The notes under the pieces are model-generated. The model saw only the letters and a list, made by a program, of their open reading frames with translations. It had not been told where the DNA came from and did not search any database. Below are positions 401-37,839 of a stretch of DNA of 64,000 bases, piece after piece (within the stretch, counting starts at the first letter, position 1; the number at the start of each line of letters is the position of its first letter). Source of the stretch: Dictyostelium discoideum (lineage: Eukaryota); contig CM000151.3 of assembly GCA_000004695.1 (NCBI GenBank), positions 7,040,001 to 7,104,000 on the forward strand, given 5' to 3'. The position numbers were made by a program, and so were the translations under genes.

Positions 401-1141
401 TTAGAGGGTTTTTGGAAATCTTTTAAGTAATGATTTTAATTTTGGTTGAGATATAATAGGAGAATTTAAACAAATACTTGGTAATTGGAAGTTTGATGAA
501 TCAGCAGATGGTTCGTAATAGTAAAAGTTGGTTAATGAATTACCACTTGGTGTGCCATTAGTATTTTGAGCAGATGCAGAGATCAATGAACAATCGGATT
601 TATCAACAAAGAGATATTGATTTGTACTGTTACCCAAAATGCTTGGATACATAAACAAATCACATTCGACTGAACCTATTTCAGCATCACTAACATACTT
701 TAAATTTTCAAAGACTGGAACAGAGTATGTTAATGTCTCTAAGAAACAATATTCATTTCCGTTTAATTCAATATTAACATATTGAGTATTATTTCCATTG
801 AAACCCCAAAGTTTACCTTTAGTTACAGAGTTTTCAGTATCCATTTCAAAATCAACATACAATTGTCCACCAACAAAATCAATATCAACTGTACCAGATT
901 CCATATAAGAAGTTTGAGTAATGTCTCCGTTTGAAGTTGGAGTATTTGCATTAAAAGCTATTTGGACAAATGAAGTTGAATAACCAGTTGGAAAGTTAGA
1001 ACTTGATGTAAAACATTGTTGTTGGCCAACTTTATTTTCAAGTTTCGAATAATCAACATTATTATTTACACCCAATTTAAGGGATTCACCACAATTGAAT
1101 GCAATTGTAAATAATAAAATTAAAGATAATAATAATTTCAT
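401..1141 (-). CDS. Secreted hypothetical protein, paralog 1 (246 aa). Signal peptide MKLLLSLILLFTIAFNC; Cys- and Asn-rich with several N-x-S/T sequons.
   Basis: Uninterrupted ORF with A-rich context before the ATG. Near-identical to paralog 2; variation concentrates in the last ~20 codons. Confidence 0.6.
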   Translation of the reverse strand: MKLLLSLILLFTIAFNCGESLKLGVNNNVDYSKLENKVGQQQCFTSSSNFPTGYSTSFVQIAFNANTPTSNGDITQTSYMESGTVDIDFVGGQLYVDFEMDTENSVTKGKLWGFNGNNTQYVNIELNGNEYCFLETLTYSVPVFENLKYVSDAEIGSVECDLFMYPSILGNSTNQYLFVDKSDCSLISASAQNTNGTPSGNSLTNFYYYEPSADSSNFQLPSICLNSPIISQPKLKSLLKRFPKTL

Positions 1142-1686: not shown

Positions 1687-1946
1687 TTAATAGTTTACAA
1701 AGTTTGGTCTTGTAAAGAATGTTGTTGAACTCTTATTTGAAACAGTATTACATGTTAAATCGAATGAATTTAAATTAGAATCATTTGATAATAATGATTT
1801 TGATGATGAAACATTTGATGATTTATTTGATAATGAAATAATTGATTCTAAAAATAAATAAAAATAATAATTAATTAGTAATTTGTTTTTTAATTTTTAC
1901 TTTTTTTTTTTTTTTTTTTTTTAAAAAAATACATACTGAATAACAT
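1687..1946 (-). CDS. Small-family gene A. Exon 1 1937..1946 (ATGTTATTCA), intron with GTATGT donor, exon 2 1687..1847. Product MLFKSIISLSNKSSNVSSSKSLLSNDSNLNSFDLTCNTVSNKSSTTFFTRPNFVNY.
   Basis: Hand-derived splice with frame check. Conserved 10-nt exon 1 and conserved C-terminal FFTRPNFVNY. Conserved promoter module at 1950-2250 on the minus strand. Confidence 0.6.
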
Positions 1947-2852: not shown

Positions 2853-3593
2853 TTAGTTAATTTTTGGAATTTTGTTAAGTAATGATTTTAATTTTGGTTG
2901 AGATAAACTAATATGAGAATTTAAGCAAATACTTGGTAATTGGAAGTTTGATGAATCAGCAGATGGTTGGTAATAGTAAAAGTTGGTTAATGAATTACCA
3001 CTTGGTGTGCCATTAGCATTTTGAGCAGATGCCGAGATTAATGAACAATCAGATTTATCAACAAAGAGATATTGATTTGTACTGTTACCTAAAATGCTTG
3101 GATACATAAACAAATCACATTCGACTGAACCTATTTCAGCATCACTAACATACTTTAAATTTTCAAAGATTGGAACAGAGTATGTCAATGTCTCTAAGAA
3201 ACAATATTCATTTCCGTTTAATTCAATATTAACATATTGAGTATTATTTCCATTGAAACCCCAAAGTTTACCTTTAGTTACAGAGTTTTCAGTATCCATT
3301 TCAAAATCAACATACAATTGTCCACCTACAAAATCAATATCAACTGTACCAGATTCCATATAAGATGTTTGAGTAATGTCTCCGTTTGAAGTTGGAGTAT
3401 TTGCATTAAATCCTATTTGAACAAATGAAGTAGAATAACCAGTTGGAAAGTTAGAACTTGATGTAAAACATTGTTGGCCAACTTTATTTTCAAGTTTCGA
3501 AAAATCAACATTATTATTTACACCCAATTTAAGGGATTCACCACAATTGAATGCAATTGTAAAAATTAAAATTAAAGATAATAATAATTTCAT
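2853..3593 (-). CDS. Secreted hypothetical protein, paralog 2 (246 aa).
   Basis: ORF about 98% identical to 401..1141. The C-terminal tail diverges with an in-frame 3-nt indel. Confidence 0.6.
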   Translation of the reverse strand: MKLLLSLILIFTIAFNCGESLKLGVNNNVDFSKLENKVGQQCFTSSSNFPTGYSTSFVQIGFNANTPTSNGDITQTSYMESGTVDIDFVGGQLYVDFEMDTENSVTKGKLWGFNGNNTQYVNIELNGNEYCFLETLTYSVPIFENLKYVSDAEIGSVECDLFMYPSILGNSTNQYLFVDKSDCSLISASAQNANGTPSGNSLTNFYYYQPSADSSNFQLPSICLNSHISLSQPKLKSLLNKIPKIN

Positions 3594-4284: not shown

Positions 4285-4384
4285 NNNNNNNNNNNNNNNN
4301 NNNNNNNNNNNNNNNNNNNNNNNNNNNNNNNNNNNNNNNNNNNNNNNNNNNNNNNNNNNNNNNNNNNNNNNNNNNNNNNNNNNN
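4285..4384. other. Assembly gap (100 N).
   Basis: Run of n. Confidence 1.
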
Positions 4385-25121: not shown

Positions 25122-25377
25122 ATGTTATTCAGTATGTTTTATTTTTTTTTTTAATTTTTTAAAATTATATTAAATGTTGTAGGGAATTTTCCATAAAATT
25201 TCACTACAGTAGCGTAGTGAATTTTATTATTTAATTTCACTACAGTAGCGTAGTGAAAAAAAAAAATCACTGACCTTAAATTTTTTTTTTTTTCAAAAAA
25301 CAAATAAAGTTTATTAAATTGAAATTTTATTTTTTGTTTTAATTATTATTTTATTTATTTTTATTATAATTATTGTT

Positions 25378-25410
<33 letters not shown>

Positions 25411-28329
25411 CAATTTTTTTTTTTTAAATTTTTTTCAATTTTTATTTGTTTATTAAAATGTAATTTTATTTTTTGTTTTAATTATTATTTTATTTATTAT
25501 TATTGTTAATTTTTTTTTTTTTTCAATTTTTTTTTTTTTAATTTATTTTTATTAATTTATTTTTATTAACTCCCTGAGTTGTTCAATTGCTTGATTTACC
25601 ATATCACTGTAAACACTGCACACAATTGAATTTTTTCTAGCTTTGTTACCTCTGGTGCATTTGATGTTTTTGCATTTTCCTTTGTATACAAAAAAGTCCA
25701 AATATAATTCGTTTTCTATTACAGTTTTTACACAATGTTGGTGAAATTGTTTTGATTTTAATTCTAATGCTTCTAACATCATATTTGAATTTTTAACGAT
25801 TAAAGCATCACCACTATTTACATATAGTACTTTGGCTGCTTTTTCGAGGAATTTAGTCAAATTTTCCTCTGAATCTAACTATTCTTCATTGCCATATTCA
25901 ATGGCTAAATTTCTTAAGAGTTTTATCGAATCTATTAATTCTTCGATCATTCTTTTTTTTTGAAATTTTTTTTTATTTTGTTTTTTCAATTTTTTTTTTT
26001 TATTTTGTTTTTTCAATTTTTTTTAAGTTTTATTTTTTTTTATTTTTTTTTATTTTTTTTAACAAATGTAATTTTTTTTTATTTTTTTCAATTTTTTTTT
26101 TTTTTAATTTTTAATTTTTTTTTTTTTTTTTAATTTTTTGTGTTGATTTGTGTTTTTTTTGTTTTTTTGATTTGGCCACTTGTTTTTATTTTCTAATTTC
26201 CCCATACCCCCTTCTATTAATTGCAACCAAATCAAGTTCTAATTTTTGTGTCCTTGTTGACTTTGTTTTTGCAACTTTTTTTGAAGGTATCACATTAACG
26301 ATTTTTCCTATTGATGGTGATTTGGAAGGTGATTTAAATGGTGATTTAAATGGTGAATTGGAAGGTGATTTAAATGGTGAATTGGAAGGTGAAATGGATG
26401 GTGATTTGGAAGGTAATTTAAATGGTGATTTGGAAGGTGATTTAAATGGTGATTTAAATGGTGAATTGGAAGGTGAAATGGATGTTGATTTGAGAGGTGA
26501 TTTGGATGTTGATTTGAGAGGTGATTTGGATGGTTTAGAATGTGATTTTAAAGGAGGTTTATTAACAATTGGTATCTTATGAGGACGGCCTCTGAGACGT
26601 TTAACAGTTGTTACTATACCACTACCAGATTGTGGTATAGTATATGATGGTATTATTTGCACTTGAGGTATTGGTGGTACTATTTCTTTTAAATTCATAT
26701 CCTTTCTCAAACAATTCATTAAATTTGGCGCTGTTGGATTATTATTTAAAAATGGGAGTATTTCTTCTTGTTCCATTTCATTATTGAGTTTGTGTTGAAA
26801 TGGATTATCGTTAATGATAGGTGGAATATTTGATGGATTGTTAAGAGCATCTTCCAAAACCCTAAATGGATCATTTTGTGTTACCAATTGATGCAAGTTG
26901 AAATTGGATAAATCCTTACCAAGATTTTTAATAAACTGAACCAGAAATTCAATAACTTTCCCATCATTATTTAAATAAAGACCAGAAGTAAAAGAATCAA
27001 TATCTTTTTGTATGTTTGGCGATGTTCTAAAAATATCAACTGTTGATTGTTTATAAAGAACCAACTTGTTACCTCCTACAAAACCAGAGTATAAACCTTT
27101 TTTTTGAAGGCTATTGATTCCATCTTCCAAAAATTCAAGTTTATAAAGTTGTTTAGTGTCTTCCTGTATTACCTTATGAATTTTACACAAAATCAATATT
27201 TTCTATTAGAATTAAATATAAAATTTGTTAATTATTACTGTTTCATATATTATTAATCTTTATGTTTTAATTACTTACATTATTTTTTTTAATTTCTAGA
27301 AAGAGTACAGTATCACCAACTTTCAATCCCTTTGGTGGTTTTGAATTCCATTGATTTTGGTAACTTGTGAGATTTTCAAGAATAATAGCTGTTCTTTCTT
27401 CTTTTGAAACATCTGAAACACCAATTGATTGAGAGTCTTGTTCTGATTGAACATTAATAAACAAAGGAACAATACCAACAGCTTGAGATGGTGTCATTTT
27501 AATTGTTCTTGTTTTTGTATTATTGTAATCATACAAAGCTTGTTTTAATAGTTCAGAAAGAGACCTAGAAGTACCATCAAGAAAACTAAAATTTATTTAT
27601 AAATGATTAATTAATAAACATATCGATAATTTATATTGTTCAAAATATCATACTCTTGTTGTTTTAATTTTGAGATCCTCTCCTTGATAGTTCGATTCAA
27701 TCTTTCTACCATACCTTGAGTTGTTGGTGTACGAGGAGCTCCATGTGCTGACTTGGAGCCTGGAAAAAGTTTTAGGAATTCTTTTTGGACTTTGTTTTTA
27801 AATTCACGTCCATTATCGCAGTGCCATACTTTCACAGAGTTTTAATATAAAAGTTACAAAACATCATATAAAAAATGATTGATACCAAACCTTTTATTCT
27901 ATTTCGTTGGCAAATGTCACACGTATCTACTGCATCAGATACAAAAGAATACAATCCCATATTATAATATTTAGTCTTGTAGTTCCCATAGGTTGCATCT
28001 CTTCCTATATGACCTTTATGCATTTCTTCCCAGAGTGATACCATTCTATAATCATTAATTACTTCTAAACACACTTCTTTTGATATATTTCTATCTCCGC
28101 CACAATTCATGACTTTTTTTTCAATTCTAAATAATTTTTCTTTTCTGTTTCTGTTTTTTATTGGTCAGAATTTAAAAAATGATTGTGTTATGGTAAGGAA
28201 AAATATTTACTCATCATGTAAAAATTTATAATTTTTATGTTTAGTATTTTCAAAATTATTATCTTCAATAAATTTTAAATAATTTATAATTTCATTTATT
28301 TTATCTTGTTTCATTTTGGGAAAATGAAA

Positions 28330-28364
<35 letters not shown>

Positions 28365-28837
28365 TGTTGGGGAAAAAAAAAAAAAATTTTGGCGCAAAAA
28401 AAAAAAAAAAAAATAAAATAAAAAAAAAAAAAAATAAAATAAAAAAAAAAAAATAAAAAAACTTAAATAGAACTAATAATCAAATAAAAGATAATAATTT
28501 AATAAACTTTATTTGTTTTTTGAAAAAAAAAAAAATTTAGGGTCAGTGATTTTTTTTTTTCACTACGCTACTGTAGTGAAATTAAATAATAAAATTCACT
28601 ACGCTACTGTAGTGAAATTTTATTGAAAATTCCCTACAACATTAAATATTAATTTTTTTTATTTTAATTTTTATATTAGAATCATTAATTTCCATTTCAT
28701 TCGAATCATCAGAAGTATCCTCAAACTTTGCTCAATTAAATAATGGTGTCTGTTTTTCTTCATGTAAAAGTGCAATTGAATTAAAAAGCAGTCAAACATC
28801 AACATTCTTTACAAGACCAAATTTCTATCATATTTAA
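25122..28837 (+). CDS. Small-family gene T. Exon 1 25122..25131 (ATGTTATTCA); the intron is split by the transposon insertion; exon 2 28680..28837. MLFKSLISISFESSEVSSNFAQLNNGVCFSSCKSAIELKSSQTSTFFTRPNFYHI.
   Basis: Exon 1 plus GTATGT lie 45 nt before the left TIR. Acceptor tattag lies 38 nt after the right TIR. Exon 2 is in frame with a diverged tail. Probably inactivated. Confidence 0.5.
25175..25320. repeat. Left terminal inverted repeat of the DDT-A-like element; contains two copies of the sub-terminal palindromic motif CACTACAGTAGCGTAGTGA.
   Basis: Reverse complement matches 28496..28641. Confidence 0.8.
25552..28313 (-). CDS. Transposase (retroviral-integrase-like; zinc finger, DDE core, C-terminal basic SPxK repeats), split by short introns. 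Exon fragments about 28214..28313 (possible first exon), 27832..28110, 27611..27835, 27267..27536, 26186..27196, 25552..25937.
   Basis: HKGHIGRDATYGN…CDICQRN (HHCC). WHCDNGREF…GAPRTPTTQGMVERLNRTIKE (rve-like). RGRPHK plus KSPSKSPFKSP repeats. Exact exon joins not resolved. Confidence 0.6.
26320..26530. repeat. ~15-bp tandem repeat (ggtgatttaaatggt-like, ~14 copies) inside the transposase 3' region. Encodes S-P-(F/L)-K-S repeats on the minus strand.
   Basis: Direct reading. Mirrored as GDLNG repeats in the antisense track ORF 26148..26582. Confidence 0.7.
28496..28641. repeat. Right terminal inverted repeat of the DDT-A-like element.
   Basis: Reverse complement of 25175..25320. Confidence 0.8.
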
Positions 28838-33555: not shown

Positions 33556-33655
33556 NNNNNNNNNNNNNNNNNNNNNNNNNNNNNNNNNNNNNNNNNNNNN
33601 NNNNNNNNNNNNNNNNNNNNNNNNNNNNNNNNNNNNNNNNNNNNNNNNNNNNNNN
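33556..33655. other. Assembly gap (100 N).
   Basis: Run of n. Confidence 1.
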
Positions 33656-33879: not shown

Positions 33880-34257
33880 AAAAAATTAATATGATTTCAA
33901 CAAGATTAATAAAATAGTTTAAATTATATTATTATTCTTGTTGATATCATTATCCTTGTTTTTTTGTTTTTAAAAACAATTGTCTTTACTTGTATGTCAA
34001 CATAATATTTTTACAAAATTTAAACAATTAATAAAATTGTGTGTTTATTAAATAGTGGTGGTGGTAGGAAGTGGTTGGGGTGGGGTGGTGGGAAGTGGTT
34101 AAATTTTACTTAAAATAATTATTTCGATTTAAAAAATAAAATAGAATTTAAAAAAAAGTATAAATACTTTTTTTTAATTTTATTTTTTATATCAAACAAA
34201 CATTAAATTAAAAACAAAACAAAAACATTAATTAAAAACTATGAAACTATAAATAAA
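33880..34257 (+). promoter_or_regulatory. Conserved family promoter module, example for gene Ia. Elements TTGTTGATATCAT, TTGTATGTCAACATAATATTTTTACAAA, a G/T-rich GTGGTGG block, ATTATTTCGATTT, the TATA-like AGTATAAATAC, and TTTTTATATCAAACAAA just before the ATG.
   Basis: Alignable with 37230-37583 (Ka), 40190-40606 (M), and in reverse complement with 1950-2250 (A), 33140-33330 (H), 35270-35460 (I), 38930-39070 (K). Confidence 0.5.
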
Positions 34258-34497
34258 ATGTTATTCAGTATGTATTTTTAATAAAAAAAACAATGAAAAT
34301 ATCAATGAATATAATATTAATTTAATATTTTTTTTTTAAATTTAGAATCATTAATTTCATTATCAAATAAAAATACCACCTTAAATTCATCTTTAATTTC
34401 AAATCAAACAAACAATGATTGTAATGAATTTAAAAATGAAATTACAAACAAAAGTTCTACTGCATTCTTTACAAGACCAAACTTTGTAAACTATTAA
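34258..34497 (+). CDS. Small-family gene Ia. Exon 1 34258..34267, exon 2 34346..34497. MLFKSLISLSNKNTTLNSSLISNQTNNDCNEFKNEITNKSSTAFFTRPNFVNY.
   Basis: Splice and frame verified. Exon 2 is identical to Ka. Confidence 0.6.
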
Positions 34498-34584: not shown

Positions 34585-34632
<48 letters not shown>

Positions 34633-34944
34633 CCTTGAGTGATTTTTAAAGTTGGTTTTAAATTAATTTTTTAAAACTATTGATTTTTTGATATTTTATC
34701 TTTATTAATATGTCTCCTTTGGATTTTATTATTTGCCCACTTTTTCATTTATAAAAGTAATTCGTTTTTTTATCAAATTTTACATAATTTTAAAATTTTT
34801 TTTTTTGTCAAACTTTTCCACAAATAAATAAAGAAAAAACAGAAAAATTATTTTTTAATTTTAAATAAATATATAAATATATTTTTTTTTTTAAATGTAC
34901 AATTTGTTTATCGGTATTAAAATTTTTTTTTTTTTTTTTTTTTT

Positions 34945-35189
34945 TTAATAGTTTATAAAGTTTGGTCTAGTAAAGAATGCAGTAGAACTTATGTTTGTAA
35001 TTTCATTTTTTAATTGATTACAATCATTGTTTGGTTGATAAGAAATTAAAGATGATTTTGAGGTGGTATTTTTATTTGATAATAAAATTAATGATTCTAA
35101 AAAAAAAAAAAAAAAATTCAAAATTAAAATCAACTTCATTATAATATATTTTTAATTATAATTTTTAAAATATACCTACTGAATAACAT
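34945..35189 (-). CDS. Small-family gene I. Exon 1 35180..35189 (GTAGGT donor), exon 2 34945..35096. MLFKSLILLSNKNTTSKSSLISYQPNNDCNQLKNEITNISSTAFFTRPNFINY.
   Basis: Track ORF 34945..35139 covers exon 2. Splice and frame verified. Confidence 0.6.
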
Positions 35190-35705
35190 TTTTTATTTTT
35201 ATAGTTTTATATTTAGTTTTTTAAGATTTTATAATGTTAACTTTGTTCGATATAATAAATTAAAAAAAAAAAAAAGTATTTATACTGTTTTTTAAATCGA
35301 AATAATTAAGTAAAATTTAGATAAACACCCACAACCACCACCACTATAGCACATTTTTTTAAAAATTATGTAAAATGATTATGTTGATATACAAGTAAAC
35401 AGTAAAAAAAAAACAAGTATAATGATATCAACAAGAATAATAGTTTAATTTATTAACAACATTTTAAAAATATGTTTCCAACATCCATTTTTTTAAAAAA
35501 GGACTTAAAATTTTATTTAATTAATTAAAAAAATAATACAATAAAATTGTTTACAACAAAATTTAATTTTAATTTTTATGATTATTTAAAAAAGAAAAAA
35601 ATAAATGATAATTTGTAAAAAAAAAAATAAAAAATTAATTCTAATTATCTAGAATAATTTATTTTACAATAGTTTTTTTAATAAAAAAAGTTATTTGGTT
35701 GTTTT

Positions 35706-36119: not shown

Positions 36120-36219
36120 NNNNNNNNNNNNNNNNNNNNNNNNNNNNNNNNNNNNNNNNNNNNNNNNNNNNNNNNNNNNNNNNNNNNNNNNNNNNNNNNN
36201 NNNNNNNNNNNNNNNNNNN
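36120..36219. other. Assembly gap (100 N).
   Basis: Run of n. Confidence 1.
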
Positions 36220-37583
36220 ATAAATCATTTTATTTCATATTTATGTTTAAAATATGTACATGAAATCACAATAAACAAAACAACACCTATGTTTAATGAT
36301 TGTTTAAAAATTGTTGATTTAAGAAATGATTTGTATTGATTCTAATAAATTAAAATTTTAACCACAAAATAAAATCCTACCACAATTTATTCTTCCATTC
36401 CTTCTACTATACCCTAACCTATTTAATTATATATTCTAGAATTTGAATTTATTGTAAAATAGTGTTTATACTCCACCAACAAAAAGGATTTAAAAACTAT
36501 TTTAAAAATCATAAAGCTTTAAAACAAAATGTTTGAAATTATTATTTTAAAAGGTTTGGAAAAAAAAGAAAAGAAAAGAAAAAAGAAAATGATATTATTT
36601 ATTAAAAAGAAAAAAACAAAAAAACAAAAAAAGAAACAAACTAAATCAAAATAAACCAATTTAGAATATAATTAATTTCTTGTTTTTCTTTTTTTTTTCC
36701 AAACTTTTAAATTTAGAAAATAATTGATTTCTTGTTTTTCTTTTTTTTTTTAGAATCGCTGGTGTATTTATTTTTTTAATTATTTTATTTTTTGATTTTG
36801 TTTTAATTTATTTCTCTTTAATTTTACTTTTTTTTCGAGTTGCTGATAGCTATGCTATTTATTTTTATTTTATTTTACTTTTACCATTTCTCTTTTATTT
36901 TGTTCTTTTTTTTTTTTAATGAATTTTTTTTTTTTCATTGTTTTAAAAACTTTTAAAAATGAAAAAAAGTATAGGAAAAATGAGAATCATAAAAAACAGG
37001 ATGATGAATAAGTTTTGATCACTTATATTTTTTAAAATATAGTGCATTTTTACATGACATATTATTATATTTTTTAAATTTGAATTGAAAAATTATATAA
37101 ATGAAGAAAAAAAATGAAAATTAATTAATGATGATATCAATTTTAAAACAATGATTGTTGAAAACATACAATATTTATGATTTTTATATGGTAGTTGAAG
37201 AAAATTATTGATTAAAAAAATTATTATCTATTAATAAAAAGGTTTTAAATTATATTATTATTCTTGTTGATATCATTTTGCTTGGCTTAATTTTATATTA
37301 ACATTTAACTTTACTTGTATGTCAACATAATATTTTTACAAATTTTAATTTATTTAATTTATTAAATAATTGTGTGTTTATTAAGTAGTGGTGGAGGGGG
37401 GTGGGTGGTTGTGAGTGTGTGATTAAATTAATTATAACTAAAAATTATTTCGATTTTAAAATTAAAAAAAAAAACAGTATAAATACTTTTTTTAATTTTA
37501 ATTTTTTATATCAAACAAAAATCATTAATTAAAAACTAAAGTTAAATAAATTAAAAACTATAAAAAAAAAATATATTTATAAA

Positions 37584-37839
37584 ATGTTATTCAGTATGTA
37601 TTTTTTTTTTTATTTTTTTATTAGAATTATTTTTTAAAAATATCAATGAATTTAATATTAATTTAATATTTTTTTTTTTAAATTTAGAATCATTAATTTC
37701 ATTATCAAATAAAAATACCACCTTAAATTCATCTTTAATTTCAAATCAAACAAACAATGATTGTAATGAATTTAAAAATGAAATTACAAACAAAAGTTCT
37801 ACTGCATTCTTTACAAGACCAAACTTTGTAAACTATTAA
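37584..37839 (+). CDS. Small-family gene Ka. Exon 1 37584..37593, exon 2 37688..37839. Product identical to Ia.
   Basis: Splice and frame verified. Promoter 37230-37583 is paralogous to 33880-34257. Confidence 0.6.

Follow-up and report, generated by a model that had tools for sequence, protein, structure and literature searches.

The conserved 10-nucleotide coding start of a Dictyostelium small-protein family is most probably the tail of an ordinary first exon

Small developmental prestalk proteins of Dictyostelium are encoded by the sigN/hssA-2C-7E family (PF05710, "Coiled"), whose two-exon gene structure was established from a sigN cDNA (Vicente et al. 2008, PMC2257962). The reading frame in exon 1 is 13 nt long in 89 of the 96 genes and 10 nt long in three of them, and a phase-1 intron of 66 to 122 nt follows in typical genes (PMC2257962). 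SigN proteins are rich in Ser, Cys, and Gly and lack an obvious signal peptide; they have been observed in vesicles, and secretion was suggested for them (PMC2257962). A study of Mef2A (PMC3640940) described clustered prestalk-specific proteins of 57 to 59 residues, such as the hssA-related DDB_G0283503, and prespore-specific proteins of 69 to 72 residues. We found that a separate and unnamed family of Dictyostelium genes has this already known architecture.

We analyzed a window of 64 kb from chromosome 2 of Dictyostelium discoideum AX4 (positions 7,040,001 to 7,104,000), in which the initial annotation had reported a conserved 10-nt "micro-exon" at the start of about 19 paralogs. We counted 18 copies of the unit formed by exon 2 and its C-terminal FFTRPNFxN(Y/F). 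The gene cluster is bounded by the genes for tRNase Z and NPC1. An intact 10-nt exon 1 lies 62 to 139 nt from exon 2 in 14 of the 18 (Table 1). The 5′ ends of three others fall in assembly gaps of 100 N, and the remaining copy carries a transposon of about 3.5 kb inside its intron. This element has arms of 283 nt, is flanked on both sides by a duplicated ATTAAAT, and contains pieces of an integrase ORF (Integrase_H2C2, rve_3). The exon 1 variants listed earlier (ATGTTATTAA, ATGTTAGCAA, ATGTTACTTA, ATGCTATTTG, and ATGATATTTA) were all found, along with an additional one, ATGTTATTTA. Allowing up to three mismatches, the 19-mer AAAATGTTATTCAGTATGT occurred 13 times in the window, compared to 0.31 times expected from shuffles. 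Further dispersed paralogs are present in AX4 (DDB_G0275639, DDB_G0286475, DDB_G0276467, and DDB_G0282383).

Table 1. Positions of the analyzed gene, its upstream elements, and the other exon 1 copies in the window
Feature	Position	Strand	Remarks
G-rich (GGTGG/GGGG) promoter element	34055..34099	+	About 160 to 200 nt 5′ of the ATG; includes the published G-quadruplex-forming sequence p12
TATA box TATAAATA, then T-run	34159..34166	+	99 nt 5′ of the ATG
Three-codon upstream ORF ATGAAACTATAA	34241..34252	+	In the presumed 5′UTR of the DDB_G0276613 copy only
Exon 1 coding part, DDB_G0276613	34258..34267	+	ATGTTATTCA (ATG TTA TTC A), Met-Leu-Phe and first base of Lys4; ATG 34258-34260, TTATTCA 34261-34267
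Intron, DDB_G0276613	34268..34345	+	78 nt, phase 1, GT-AG; donor GTATGT 34268-34273, T-rich stretch, TAG with acceptor AG 34344-34345
Coding exon 2 with stop, DDB_G0276613	34346..34497	+	152 nt, begins AATCATTAATTTC; encodes (K)SLISLSNK...FFTRPNFVNY; stop TAA 34495-34497
Exon 1 coding part, DDB_G0276707	37584..37593	+	Protein identical to DDB_G0276613; intron 94 nt
Exon 1 coding part, DDB_G0276621	6443..6452	+	ATGTTATTTA
Exon 1 coding part, DDB_G0276643	25122..25131	+	ATGTTATTCA followed by GTATGT; exon 2 from 28680; intron enlarged by transposon
Transposon in DDB_G0276643 intron	25161..28655	.	Tdd-4/Tdd-5 kind, about 3.5 kb, terminal inverted repeats
Exon 1 coding part, DDB_G0276637	32164..32173	+	ATGTTAGCAA
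Exon 1 coding part, DDB_G0276653	39602..39611	+	ATGCTATTTG
Exon 1 coding part, DDB_G0276655	40607..40616	+	ATGTTATTCA
Exon 1 coding part	1937..1946	-	ATGTTATTCA; protein deposited as DDB_G0276595 and DDB_G0276605
Exon 1 coding part, DDB_G0276619	5334..5343	-	ATGTTACTTA
Exon 1 coding part, DDB_G0276641	29621..29630	-	ATGTTATTAA
Exon 1 coding part, DDB_G0276639	30511..30520	-	ATGTTATTAA
Exon 1 coding part, DDB_G0276635	33022..33031	-	ATGTTATTAA
Exon 1 coding part	35180..35189	-	ATGTTATTCA followed by GTAGGT; exact protein absent from protein collection
Exon 1 coding part, DDB_G0276651	38727..38736	-	ATGTTATTCA followed by GTAAGT
Exon 1 coding part, DDB_G0276669	60686..60695	-	ATGATATTTA; divergent outlier copy

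The 10 bases are a genuine coding start that is already annotated in the AX4 gene models. Of the ten spliced models that we looked up, nine matched deposited AX4 proteins letter for letter. The same layout extended to other species: D. purpureum has one copy, D. citrinum has 10, and D. firmibasis has 10 clustered copies and two dispersed, divergent ones. Across these four species, all 37 complete copies have the 10-nt start followed at once by a GTA(T/A/G)GT donor and, later, an AG acceptor, although paralogs and orthologs share ancestry and such counts overstate the number of independent observations. The conserved exon, donor, acceptor, and intron position claimed for the window were thus common to every complete member. 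The donor had been written GT(A/T)(T/A/G)GT; one does always follow immediately, but its third base is always A. In the 35 copies that we tabulated, which exclude the two dispersed D. firmibasis members (both of which also have a 10-nt exon 1 and a phase-1 intron), the donor is GTATGT in 23, GTAAGT in 8, and GTAGGT in 4. TAG serves as the acceptor in every one of these and in 36 of the 37 complete copies. The introns are short, phase-1, GT-AG introns of 62 to 139 nt, and the products are 49 to 59 residues long.

Exon 2 is the sole long reading frame of each gene, and in most copies it has no start codon of its own. There is no internal Met in 27 of the 35 copies and no in-frame intronic ATG leading into exon 2 in 32 of them, and the unspliced frame from the ATG ends after 5 to 48 codons. 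Judging from these frames, translation would require splicing. We consider it highly probable that DDB_G0276613 is a small two-exon gene of a duplicated family and that the 10 bases are the coding tail of its ordinary first exon. Transcription would start about 30 nt past the TATA box and T-run, giving a first exon of about 60 to 80 nt of 5′UTR, the ATG, and seven more bases. Removal of the short phase-1 intron would then form codon 4 (A plus AA, Lys) and join Met-Leu-Phe to the long frame of exon 2. Three ordinary causes account for the conservation of this start. The copies go back to one ancestral gene that was duplicated locally time and again, purifying selection acts on the N-terminal peptide and on the splice signals, and Dictyostelium rarely loses 5′-proximal introns in AT-rich flanks. 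The published layout of the sigN small-protein family is the same, which makes this arrangement an ordinary one.

The term micro-exon does not fit this exon. Most of the 35 copies have TATAAA and a T-run 73 to 127 nt before the ATG, which in every copy is also preceded by an in-frame stop at a distance of 6 to 90 nt. Given these features and the lack of an upstream, donor-bearing signal peptide exon, with the TATA box lying about 95 nt upstream, the exon is an ordinary first exon made up of 5′UTR and 10 coding bases. Strict micro-exons of animals and plants are internal exons of about 3 to 30 nt, and the likeness consists only in the 10 coding nucleotides that precede the intron here. Strict micro-exons are flanked by introns on both sides, whereas the family exon comes first and carries the 5′UTR. 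They also pose exon definition problems, none of which arise for a first exon without an upstream acceptor. Further upstream, GT-rich 20-mers resembling the G-rich element in Table 1 occur at positions -145 to -200 in paralogs and in the D. citrinum and D. firmibasis orthologs. The paper that described p12 assigned such G-rich elements to promoters using the RNA-seq and EST tracks of dictyBase, which bears only indirectly on where the transcript begins. The three-codon upstream ORF was rejected as a family-wide regulatory feature; it occurs in a single copy, and the copy at 37584, whose protein is identical, lacks it.

Conservation followed the coding sequence. In the 35 copies, the mean pairwise identity was 0.87 for exon 1 and 0.80 for the last 36 coding nucleotides, compared to 0.52 for the 40 nt 5′ of the ATG and 0.48 for the 30 nt 3′ of the stop. 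High conservation runs unbroken across the junction and through the first 13 nt of exon 2. Ortholog pairs were 93% identical in exon 1 and 85% identical in exon 2; their 5′UTRs were 67% identical, compared to 63% in shuffled controls. Pooled dN/dS was 0.29, a value drawn from six short, partly redundant pairs. It had been proposed that the N-terminal tripeptide is constrained. The N-terminus is indeed constrained, as the contrast between exon 1 and a 5′UTR identity of about 0.5 indicates, but the unit is larger than a tripeptide, because residue 3 varies (F, L, A, or S), no base of exon 1 is less conserved than the wobble base of that codon, and conservation continues into exon 2. By this comparison of sequences, the constraint falls on a peptide of about 12 residues, MLFKSLISLSNK, that straddles the splice junction.

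Each product consists of this conserved N-terminal dodecapeptide, a fast-evolving Asn/Ser/Thr-rich middle, and a conserved C-terminus, FFTRPNF(V/I/L)N(Y/F). Overall composition is 17.7% Ser, 15.7% Asn, 10.1% Thr, 1.7% Cys, and 0.1% Gly. An AlphaFold2 model was of low confidence (mean pLDDT, 64; pTM, 0.14) and contained a short helix at residues 3 to 9, a somewhat firmer C-terminal motif, and nothing else. An amphipathic N-terminal helix was considered and rejected; the hydrophobic moment of residues 1 to 12 was not above that of shuffles, 10 to 83% of which reached the observed value. Five family members had no Pfam match at an E value of ≤10. A word-indexed profile search returned proteins from D. 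discoideum, D. citrinum, D. firmibasis, and D. purpureum only, and an exhaustive profile search against 1.84 billion representative proteins yielded 25 clusters, of which all that were traced came from the same four species. On these searches, the family appears to be a tandemly and invertedly duplicated one restricted to Dictyostelium of the discoideum/purpureum group. This defines an unnamed lineage-restricted family of about 30 or more D. discoideum genes with conserved motifs at both ends, which may interest those who study peptide signals or the small proteins of development in social amoebae. For the 10-nt exon itself, the outcome is mostly one of housekeeping, in that ordinary gene evolution accounts for what is a genuine exon.

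Another reading is that the family is a diverged branch of sigN/hssA, or borrowed its 5′ end, with the loss of one codon taking the exon 1 frame from 13 to 10 nt; we regard this as possible but doubtful. What was inherited would be an ancestral 5′ module consisting of a TATA box, a 5′UTR, an ATG micro-reading frame, a phase-1 intron, and an exon 2 that starts S-(I/L)-x-S-(I/L)-x-N. Both families consist of two-exon genes with a tiny exon 1 frame, and three of the listed sigN genes already have one of 10 nt. The intron is in phase 1 in both and of similar length (66 to 122 nt in typical sigN genes [PMC2257962] and 62 to 139 nt here). The products of both are under 120 residues with homologs only in Dictyostelium, their genes lie in clustered, partly inverted arrays (many of the sigN ones on chromosome 2), and neither has a classical signal peptide. 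Both N-termini alternate hydrophobic residues with Ser (MTILASISSIGN in sigN and MLFKSLISLSNK in the family), and MTI(L/M)ASISSIGN of sigN resembles the family dodecapeptide. A search with a SigN-like sequence returned one D. dimigraforme protein, and from database sequences we confirmed a 13-nt exon 1 in a sigN-like gene of that species.

Several results argue against common descent with sigN/hssA. Family members did not match PF05710 at an E value of ≤10, whereas a sigN-like control matched at 2.8e-23. The hhalign probability between the family alignment and a sigN-like alignment (three rows, one of them a SigN-like query sequence and not a database entry) was 0.4%, and the search of 1.84 billion representatives yielded no sigN/hssA proteins. 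Gly makes up 0.1% of the Asn/Ser/Thr-rich family, in contrast to the abundant Ser, Cys, and Gly of SigN (PMC2257962). The family proteins have 49 to 59 residues and end in FFTRPNFxN(Y/F), whereas sigN proteins mostly have 75 to 100 and end in CGC followed by His or Asn. When compared by exon sizes, the family genes could not be recognized among the 96 sigN-related genes listed, and none of the four entries with a 10-nt exon matches. The shared motif of about 11 low-complexity residues is too short to serve as proof of descent.

The small-protein sets of the Mef2A study resemble the family in size class and in their tandem clusters, but they sit in another chromosomal cluster (G02834xx to G02835xx). 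The RT-PCR primer for DDB_G0283503, CAAATCATTACAATC (..KSLQSITS), nearly matches the spliced family junction, CA joined to AATCATTA, at the nucleotide level, which adds to the case for a sigN/hssA link. The relation to DDB_G0283503-type genes may be taken as a lead only. A wider proposal is that the FFTRPNF, sigN/hssA, and 57- to 59-residue prestalk families share one ancestral 5′ starter module with a leader function, which we think rather unlikely. The starter would comprise a promoter with a TATA box and T-run, a short 5′UTR, an ATG with 7 to 10 bases, the phase-1 intron, and the S-(I/L)-x-S-(I/L)-x-N sequence. The encoded M(T)(L/I)(F/L)-x-S-(L/I)-x-S-(L/I)-x-N would act as a functional leader, possibly for vesicle routing or for unconventional secretion without a classical signal peptide, by analogy with what was suggested for SigN. 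If this were true, new small-protein families would arise by joining new C-terminal sequence to an intron-containing starter. Likewise, common descent behind the resemblance to the sigN 5′ module, if real, would show how new small-protein families arise in this lineage.

The intron or its boundary might instead be retained for a function of its own, either a boost in expression (intron-mediated enhancement or splicing-coupled export or translation) or a promoter or regulatory element. Enhancing introns act near the transcription start, and the family intron would begin about 70 to 110 nt from the predicted one. Loss of the intron was seen in 0 of the 37 complete copies in four species, and the unrelated-looking sigN family keeps an equivalent intron in 89 of 96 genes. 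Retention, however, is what one expects by default for 5′-proximal introns in AT-rich flanks: introns that were lost in Dictyostelium lay further from the 5′ end and had more GC-rich flanks than conserved introns. When we aligned the introns, only the splice signals and the T-run were conserved, and the intron core of ortholog pairs was 62% identical, compared to 58% in shuffled controls, a comparison that bears on sequence elements and cannot test a sequence-independent benefit for expression. Since the interior is barely above shuffled sequence, no specific intronic element is indicated, and we saw no sign of the intronic promoter or regulatory role suggested at first. One copy also tolerates a 3.5-kb transposon in its intron, as seen in the sequence alone. 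As the copies are tandem duplicates, no special function is needed to account for the shared intron position, for which a functional constraint had been proposed. We judge a dedicated function of the intron to be improbable and prefer an ordinary first exon kept by descent and by selection on the peptide and splice signals.

It is very improbable that the gene models are prediction artefacts, with repeats that are noncoding or pseudogenes and a meaningless exon-intron structure. All members are deposited as hypothetical or uncharacterized proteins. We compared 21 gene identifiers, the D. purpureum locus tag, and two peptide motifs against literature text, and the G-quadruplex paper was the sole match; the gene identifiers came without expression data in the papers and supplements searched and were absent from the supplements of the searched RNA-seq and expression papers and from the supplementary tables of one life-cycle proteome. 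In contrast, more than 40 copies from the four species retain the open frame and FFTRPNF, splice signals are canonical in every copy, conservation is far higher in the exons than in the intron and UTR, and dN/dS is 0.29, as above. The deposited D. purpureum member bears the label "expressed protein."

The initial annotation had also seen a contradiction between abundant N-x-S/T sequons and the lack of a signal peptide. The sequons are an effect of composition: we observed 31, compared to 31.2 ± 4.4 in 5,000 shuffles, 56% of which reached 31. Uninterrupted hydrophobic runs within the first 25 residues reach at most 3 to 4 residues (a classical core has about 7 to 15). We ran the proposed check for an upstream signal peptide exon on the sequence of the 35 copies, searching the 1 kb upstream for phase-1 exons that span 15 or more codons and end in a family-type donor. 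That an unseen exon of this kind encodes a signal peptide and that the ATG of the 10-nt exon is not the true start has next to no probability, despite the N-x-S/T sites and the vesicular location of SigN proteins that likewise lack an obvious signal peptide, given that 33 of the 35 copies had no candidate, the two chance matches had hydrophobic runs of 4 to 5 residues and no hydrophobic core, a conserved TATA box and T-run and an in-frame stop precede the ATG, and neighboring genes leave only about 0.5 to 1.2 kb of intergenic space.

Tiny first coding exons are easily overlooked or mismodeled in automated annotation. Of at least 10 copies in the D. citrinum region, a single one is annotated. 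Models that begin within the intron or read past the stop are found for several genes of D. firmibasis, D. discoideum, and D. dimigraforme. The AX4 model of DDB_G0276643 seems to include a spurious 7-nt exon that lies within the transposon.

We found that the 10-nt coding start at 34258-34267 belongs to DDB_G0276613, whose spliced protein matches the deposited protein at 100% identity along its entire length. The coding part of exon 1 is ATGTTATTCA; a GTATGT donor opens the AT-rich intron of 78 nt, whose last bases are TAG, and exon 2 begins AATCATTAATTTC. The spliced product has 53 residues (MLFKSLISLSNKNTTLNSSLISNQTNNDCNEFKNEITNKSSTAFFTRPNFVNY). The copy at 37584, DDB_G0276707, encodes an identical protein. 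GC content in the window is only 14 to 33% (2-kb windows), and at ≤3 mismatches the window has 13 occurrences of the 19-mer that surrounds the start, versus 0.31 expected by chance. The exon, donor, intron, and AG acceptor described in the initial annotation were present from 34258 onward, and all of its exon 1 variants were found in the window. Its donor consensus, GT(A/T)(T/A/G)GT, was right in that a donor was always present but was too broad, since the 35 complete copies that we tabulated, which share ancestry, carry GTA(T/A/G)GT; the acceptor was TAG in 35/35. Nine of the 10 spliced models that we looked up were letter-identical to deposited AX4 proteins. Therefore, the structure is already in public annotation. 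It also has published precedent.

A six-frame scan of the window yielded 18 copies of the C-terminal motif FFTRPNFxN[YF], which marks the family. An intact 10-nt exon 1 was found in 14 of these, three have 5' ends that fall in 100-N assembly gaps, and in one a ~3.5-kb transposon in the intron splits the two exons. We then took homologous genomic DNA from D. purpureum (one complete copy), D. firmibasis (10 in the syntenic cluster and two dispersed and divergent), and D. citrinum (10 in the syntenic cluster). All complete copies had the same structure as those of D. discoideum; the D. purpureum copy reads ATGTTATTCA before GTAAGT and TAG before AATCATTAGTTTC. In D. discoideum and D. firmibasis, a gene resembling tRNase Z and another resembling NPC1 flank the cluster, and the NPC1-like gene is on the same side in D. 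citrinum. The shared structure indicates that the architecture dates to the family ancestor. In word-indexed and exhaustive profile searches, the family was limited to these four species. It had no Pfam match, and its deposited labels are all hypothetical or uncharacterized.

We found no Met besides the first in 27/35 copies and no in-frame intronic ATG leading into exon 2 in 32/35, and unspliced reading from the ATG stops after 5 to 48 codons. We infer from these sequences that splicing would be needed: the conserved, selected exon 2 frame would be translatable only after being spliced to the exon that carries the ATG. For the D. purpureum member, the deposited name is "expressed protein," which hints at transcript support. 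In most copies, TATAAA and a T-run after it precede the ATG by 73 to 127 nt (-92 to -110 in the majority), and every ATG has an in-frame stop 6 to 90 nt upstream. Dictyostelium core promoters usually consist of a TATA box with an oligo-T stretch after it. Thus, the first exon would consist of a ~60- to 80-nt 5' untranslated region (5'UTR) plus 10 coding bases, and the term "micro-exon" used initially does not strictly apply.

The copies arose by local duplication of a single ancestor and so should share their intron position. Introns lost in Dictyostelium lay farther from the 5' end and had more GC-rich exon flanks than conserved introns, and the GC-rich flanks fit loss via reverse-transcribed mRNA (PMC4683709). 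With only 10 coding nt before it and extremely AT-rich flanks, the family's intron therefore belongs to the class with the lowest expected rate of loss. An early intron might also give a general expression benefit to such short transcripts.

We compared segments by mean pairwise identity over the 35 copies. Identity was 0.87 in exon 1 (10 nt), 0.80 in the last 36 coding nt, 0.65 in the first 32 nt of exon 2 (much higher in its first 13 nt), 0.61 and 0.57 in the first 20 and last 30 nt of the intron, 0.52 in the 40 nt upstream of the ATG, and 0.48 in the 30 nt downstream of the stop; random identity at intron base composition is 0.41. Within exon 1, conservation is lowest at the wobble base of codon 3 (position 9), and residue 3 varies (F, L, A, S), a pattern that is the signature of protein constraint and not of a DNA or RNA element. 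Between orthologs, identity was 93% in exon 1 and 85% in exon 2. The intron core reached 62% versus 58% in the shuffled control, which argues against the intronic regulatory role once considered, and the 5'UTR reached 67% versus 63%. The pooled dN/dS, from six short, partly redundant pairs, was 0.29. Thus, the N-terminus is constrained, as proposed, but the conserved unit is neither a tripeptide nor the intron; it comprises the splice signals and the first ~12 residues, MLFKSLISLSNK, whose codons run across the splice junction.

The N-x-S/T sequons had been seen as contradicting the lack of a signal peptide. In 14 window proteins, we counted 31 sequons, versus 31.2 ± 4.4 after shuffling each protein. 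The sequons simply mirror composition (Asn, 16%; Ser, 18%; Thr, 10%), and the contradiction disappears. N-terminal hydrophobic runs span only 3 to 4 residues. A hidden alternative first exon is essentially excluded by sequence: in the 1 kb upstream of each copy, ATG-initiated exons of ≥15 codons with a phase 1 end and a family-type donor were absent in 33/35 copies, and the other two had chance matches without a hydrophobic core. Of the functional reading first offered, constraint on the N-terminal peptide holds, but nothing special has to be invoked for the "micro-exon," intron, or sequons.

Among described cases, the sigN family (hssA/2C/7E) comes closest, with 96 genes encoding proteins of <120 residues, 89 of them with a 13-nt exon 1 reading frame; sigN132, sigN183, and sigN176 are tabulated with a 10-nt exon 1 reading frame (PMC2257962). 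In D. dimigraforme, we verified that one sigN-like gene has an exon 1 of 13 nt (ATGACAATCATGG before GTAAAT). Both 13 nt and 10 nt place the intron in phase 1, and the N-termini are alike (MTI(L/M)ASISSIGN in sigN and MLFKSLISLSNK here). A published primer for DDB_G0283503, another small-protein gene, encodes ..KSLQSITS (PMC3640940). In contrast, composition is quite unlike that of sigN, PF05710 had no match at E ≤ 10 (sigN-like control, 2.8e-23), and profile-profile comparison, on a three-row sigN alignment of which one row was not drawn from a database record, gave a probability of 0.4%. We therefore rejected sigN membership by sequence and placed these genes in a separate family whose gene architecture is of the known sigN type; that the two 5' modules share an ancestor is possible but rather unlikely. 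Another D. dimigraforme sigN-like gene, at L006:10396-10409 (+), reads ATGACAATTTTTAG before GTAATT, one T beyond the in-frame 13 nt, and is either a frameshifted pseudogene or an assembly homopolymer error.

Positions of features in and around the family arrays (window coordinates)
Feature	Position	Strand	Remark
246-residue ORF	401-1141	-	matches amoebozoan ependymin domain PF25544
Family copy	near 1716-1946
246-residue ORF	2853-3593	-
C-terminal motif	4190	-	5' end masked by gap
100-N gap	4285-4384
C-terminal motif	4517	+	5' end masked by gap
TATA box, DDB_G0276643	near 24992
Exon 1, DDB_G0276643	25122-25131
Transposon	25161-28655
Apparent 7-nt exon of deposited model	28237-28243		ATGTTTA before GT
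Exon 2, DDB_G0276643	from 28680
100-N gap	33556-33655
G-rich tract	34055-34099	+	contains p12 (at 34056)
Upstream ORF	34241-34252	+	ATGAAACTATAA
DDB_G0276613	34258-34497	+
Homopolymer run	34589-34633
Family gene	34950-35189	-
G/GT-rich tract	~35320-35345		upstream of minus-strand gene at 35189
C-terminal motif	35966	-	5' end masked by gap
100-N gap	36120-36219
G-rich tract	37389-37409	+	p14 (at 37389)

Some copies carry G/GT-rich tracts 145 to 200 nt before the ATG, in surroundings of ~15% GC. The D. citrinum and D. firmibasis orthologs have similar tracts at the same distance, and in D. purpureum a C-rich tract adjoins the TATA box. The tracts might serve as sites of the G-box type, bound by a developmental transcription factor. 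p12 and p14 are published G-quadruplex-forming sequences whose chromosome 2 coordinates place the window at chr2:7,040,001-7,104,000, and G-rich elements were put at ~-200 in the DDB_G0276613 and DDB_G0276707 promoters via dictyBase RNA-seq and EST tracks (PMC6511855). The three-codon upstream ORF, 17 nt before the start codon, occurs only in the DDB_G0276613 copy and is absent from the 37584 paralog.

The AlphaFold2 model was of low confidence (mean pLDDT, 64), with a short helix at residues 3 to 9 and a somewhat firmer C-terminal motif; an amphipathic N-terminus was not significant. Overall, the peptide would be mostly disordered, with a short conserved motif at either end.

As side results, the analysis yielded an unnamed family, errors of annotation due to the tiny exon, and a transposon-expanded intron. 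Automated annotations of the D. citrinum, D. firmibasis, and D. dimigraforme loci cope poorly with tiny first exons. Of at least 10 complete family genes in the 20-kb D. citrinum locus, only one is annotated; deposited models P0004 and P0050 take as their start an ATG that lies in the intron or upstream of it, and P0030 and P0033 extend beyond the normal stop.

The transposon in DDB_G0276643 enlarged the intron ~forty-fold. Its terminal inverted repeats are 283 nt long and 84% complementary, it carries integrase ORF pieces (Integrase_H2C2 and rve_3), and an ATTAAAT duplication flanks it; it resembles the Tdd-4/Tdd-5 class. In the D. firmibasis counterpart (L002:4872), which we assigned on protein similarity and position, the intron has a normal length of 85 nt, and therefore the insertion appears derived. 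In the deposited AX4 model, which has 54 residues (MFKSLIS...), the start appears to be a spurious exon of 7 nt within the transposon. The exon 1 of the family type, 3.5 kb upstream and with its own TATA box, would give MLFKSLIS....

All three assembly gaps fall inside family arrays, and two of them mask the 5' ends of three copies. DDB_G0276613 and the minus-strand gene at 34950-35189 form a tail-to-tail inverted duplication ~450 nt apart, with proteins ~83% identical and long T or A homopolymer runs between them. The two 246-residue ORFs, of which we scanned the first, lie among family copies and suggest a larger duplicated unit of ~2.45 kb. DDB_G0276595, DDB_G0276599, DDB_G0276605, and DDB_G0276609, four AX4 genes, encode near-identical proteins in one 90%-identity cluster, which fits several ~2.45-kb repeats.
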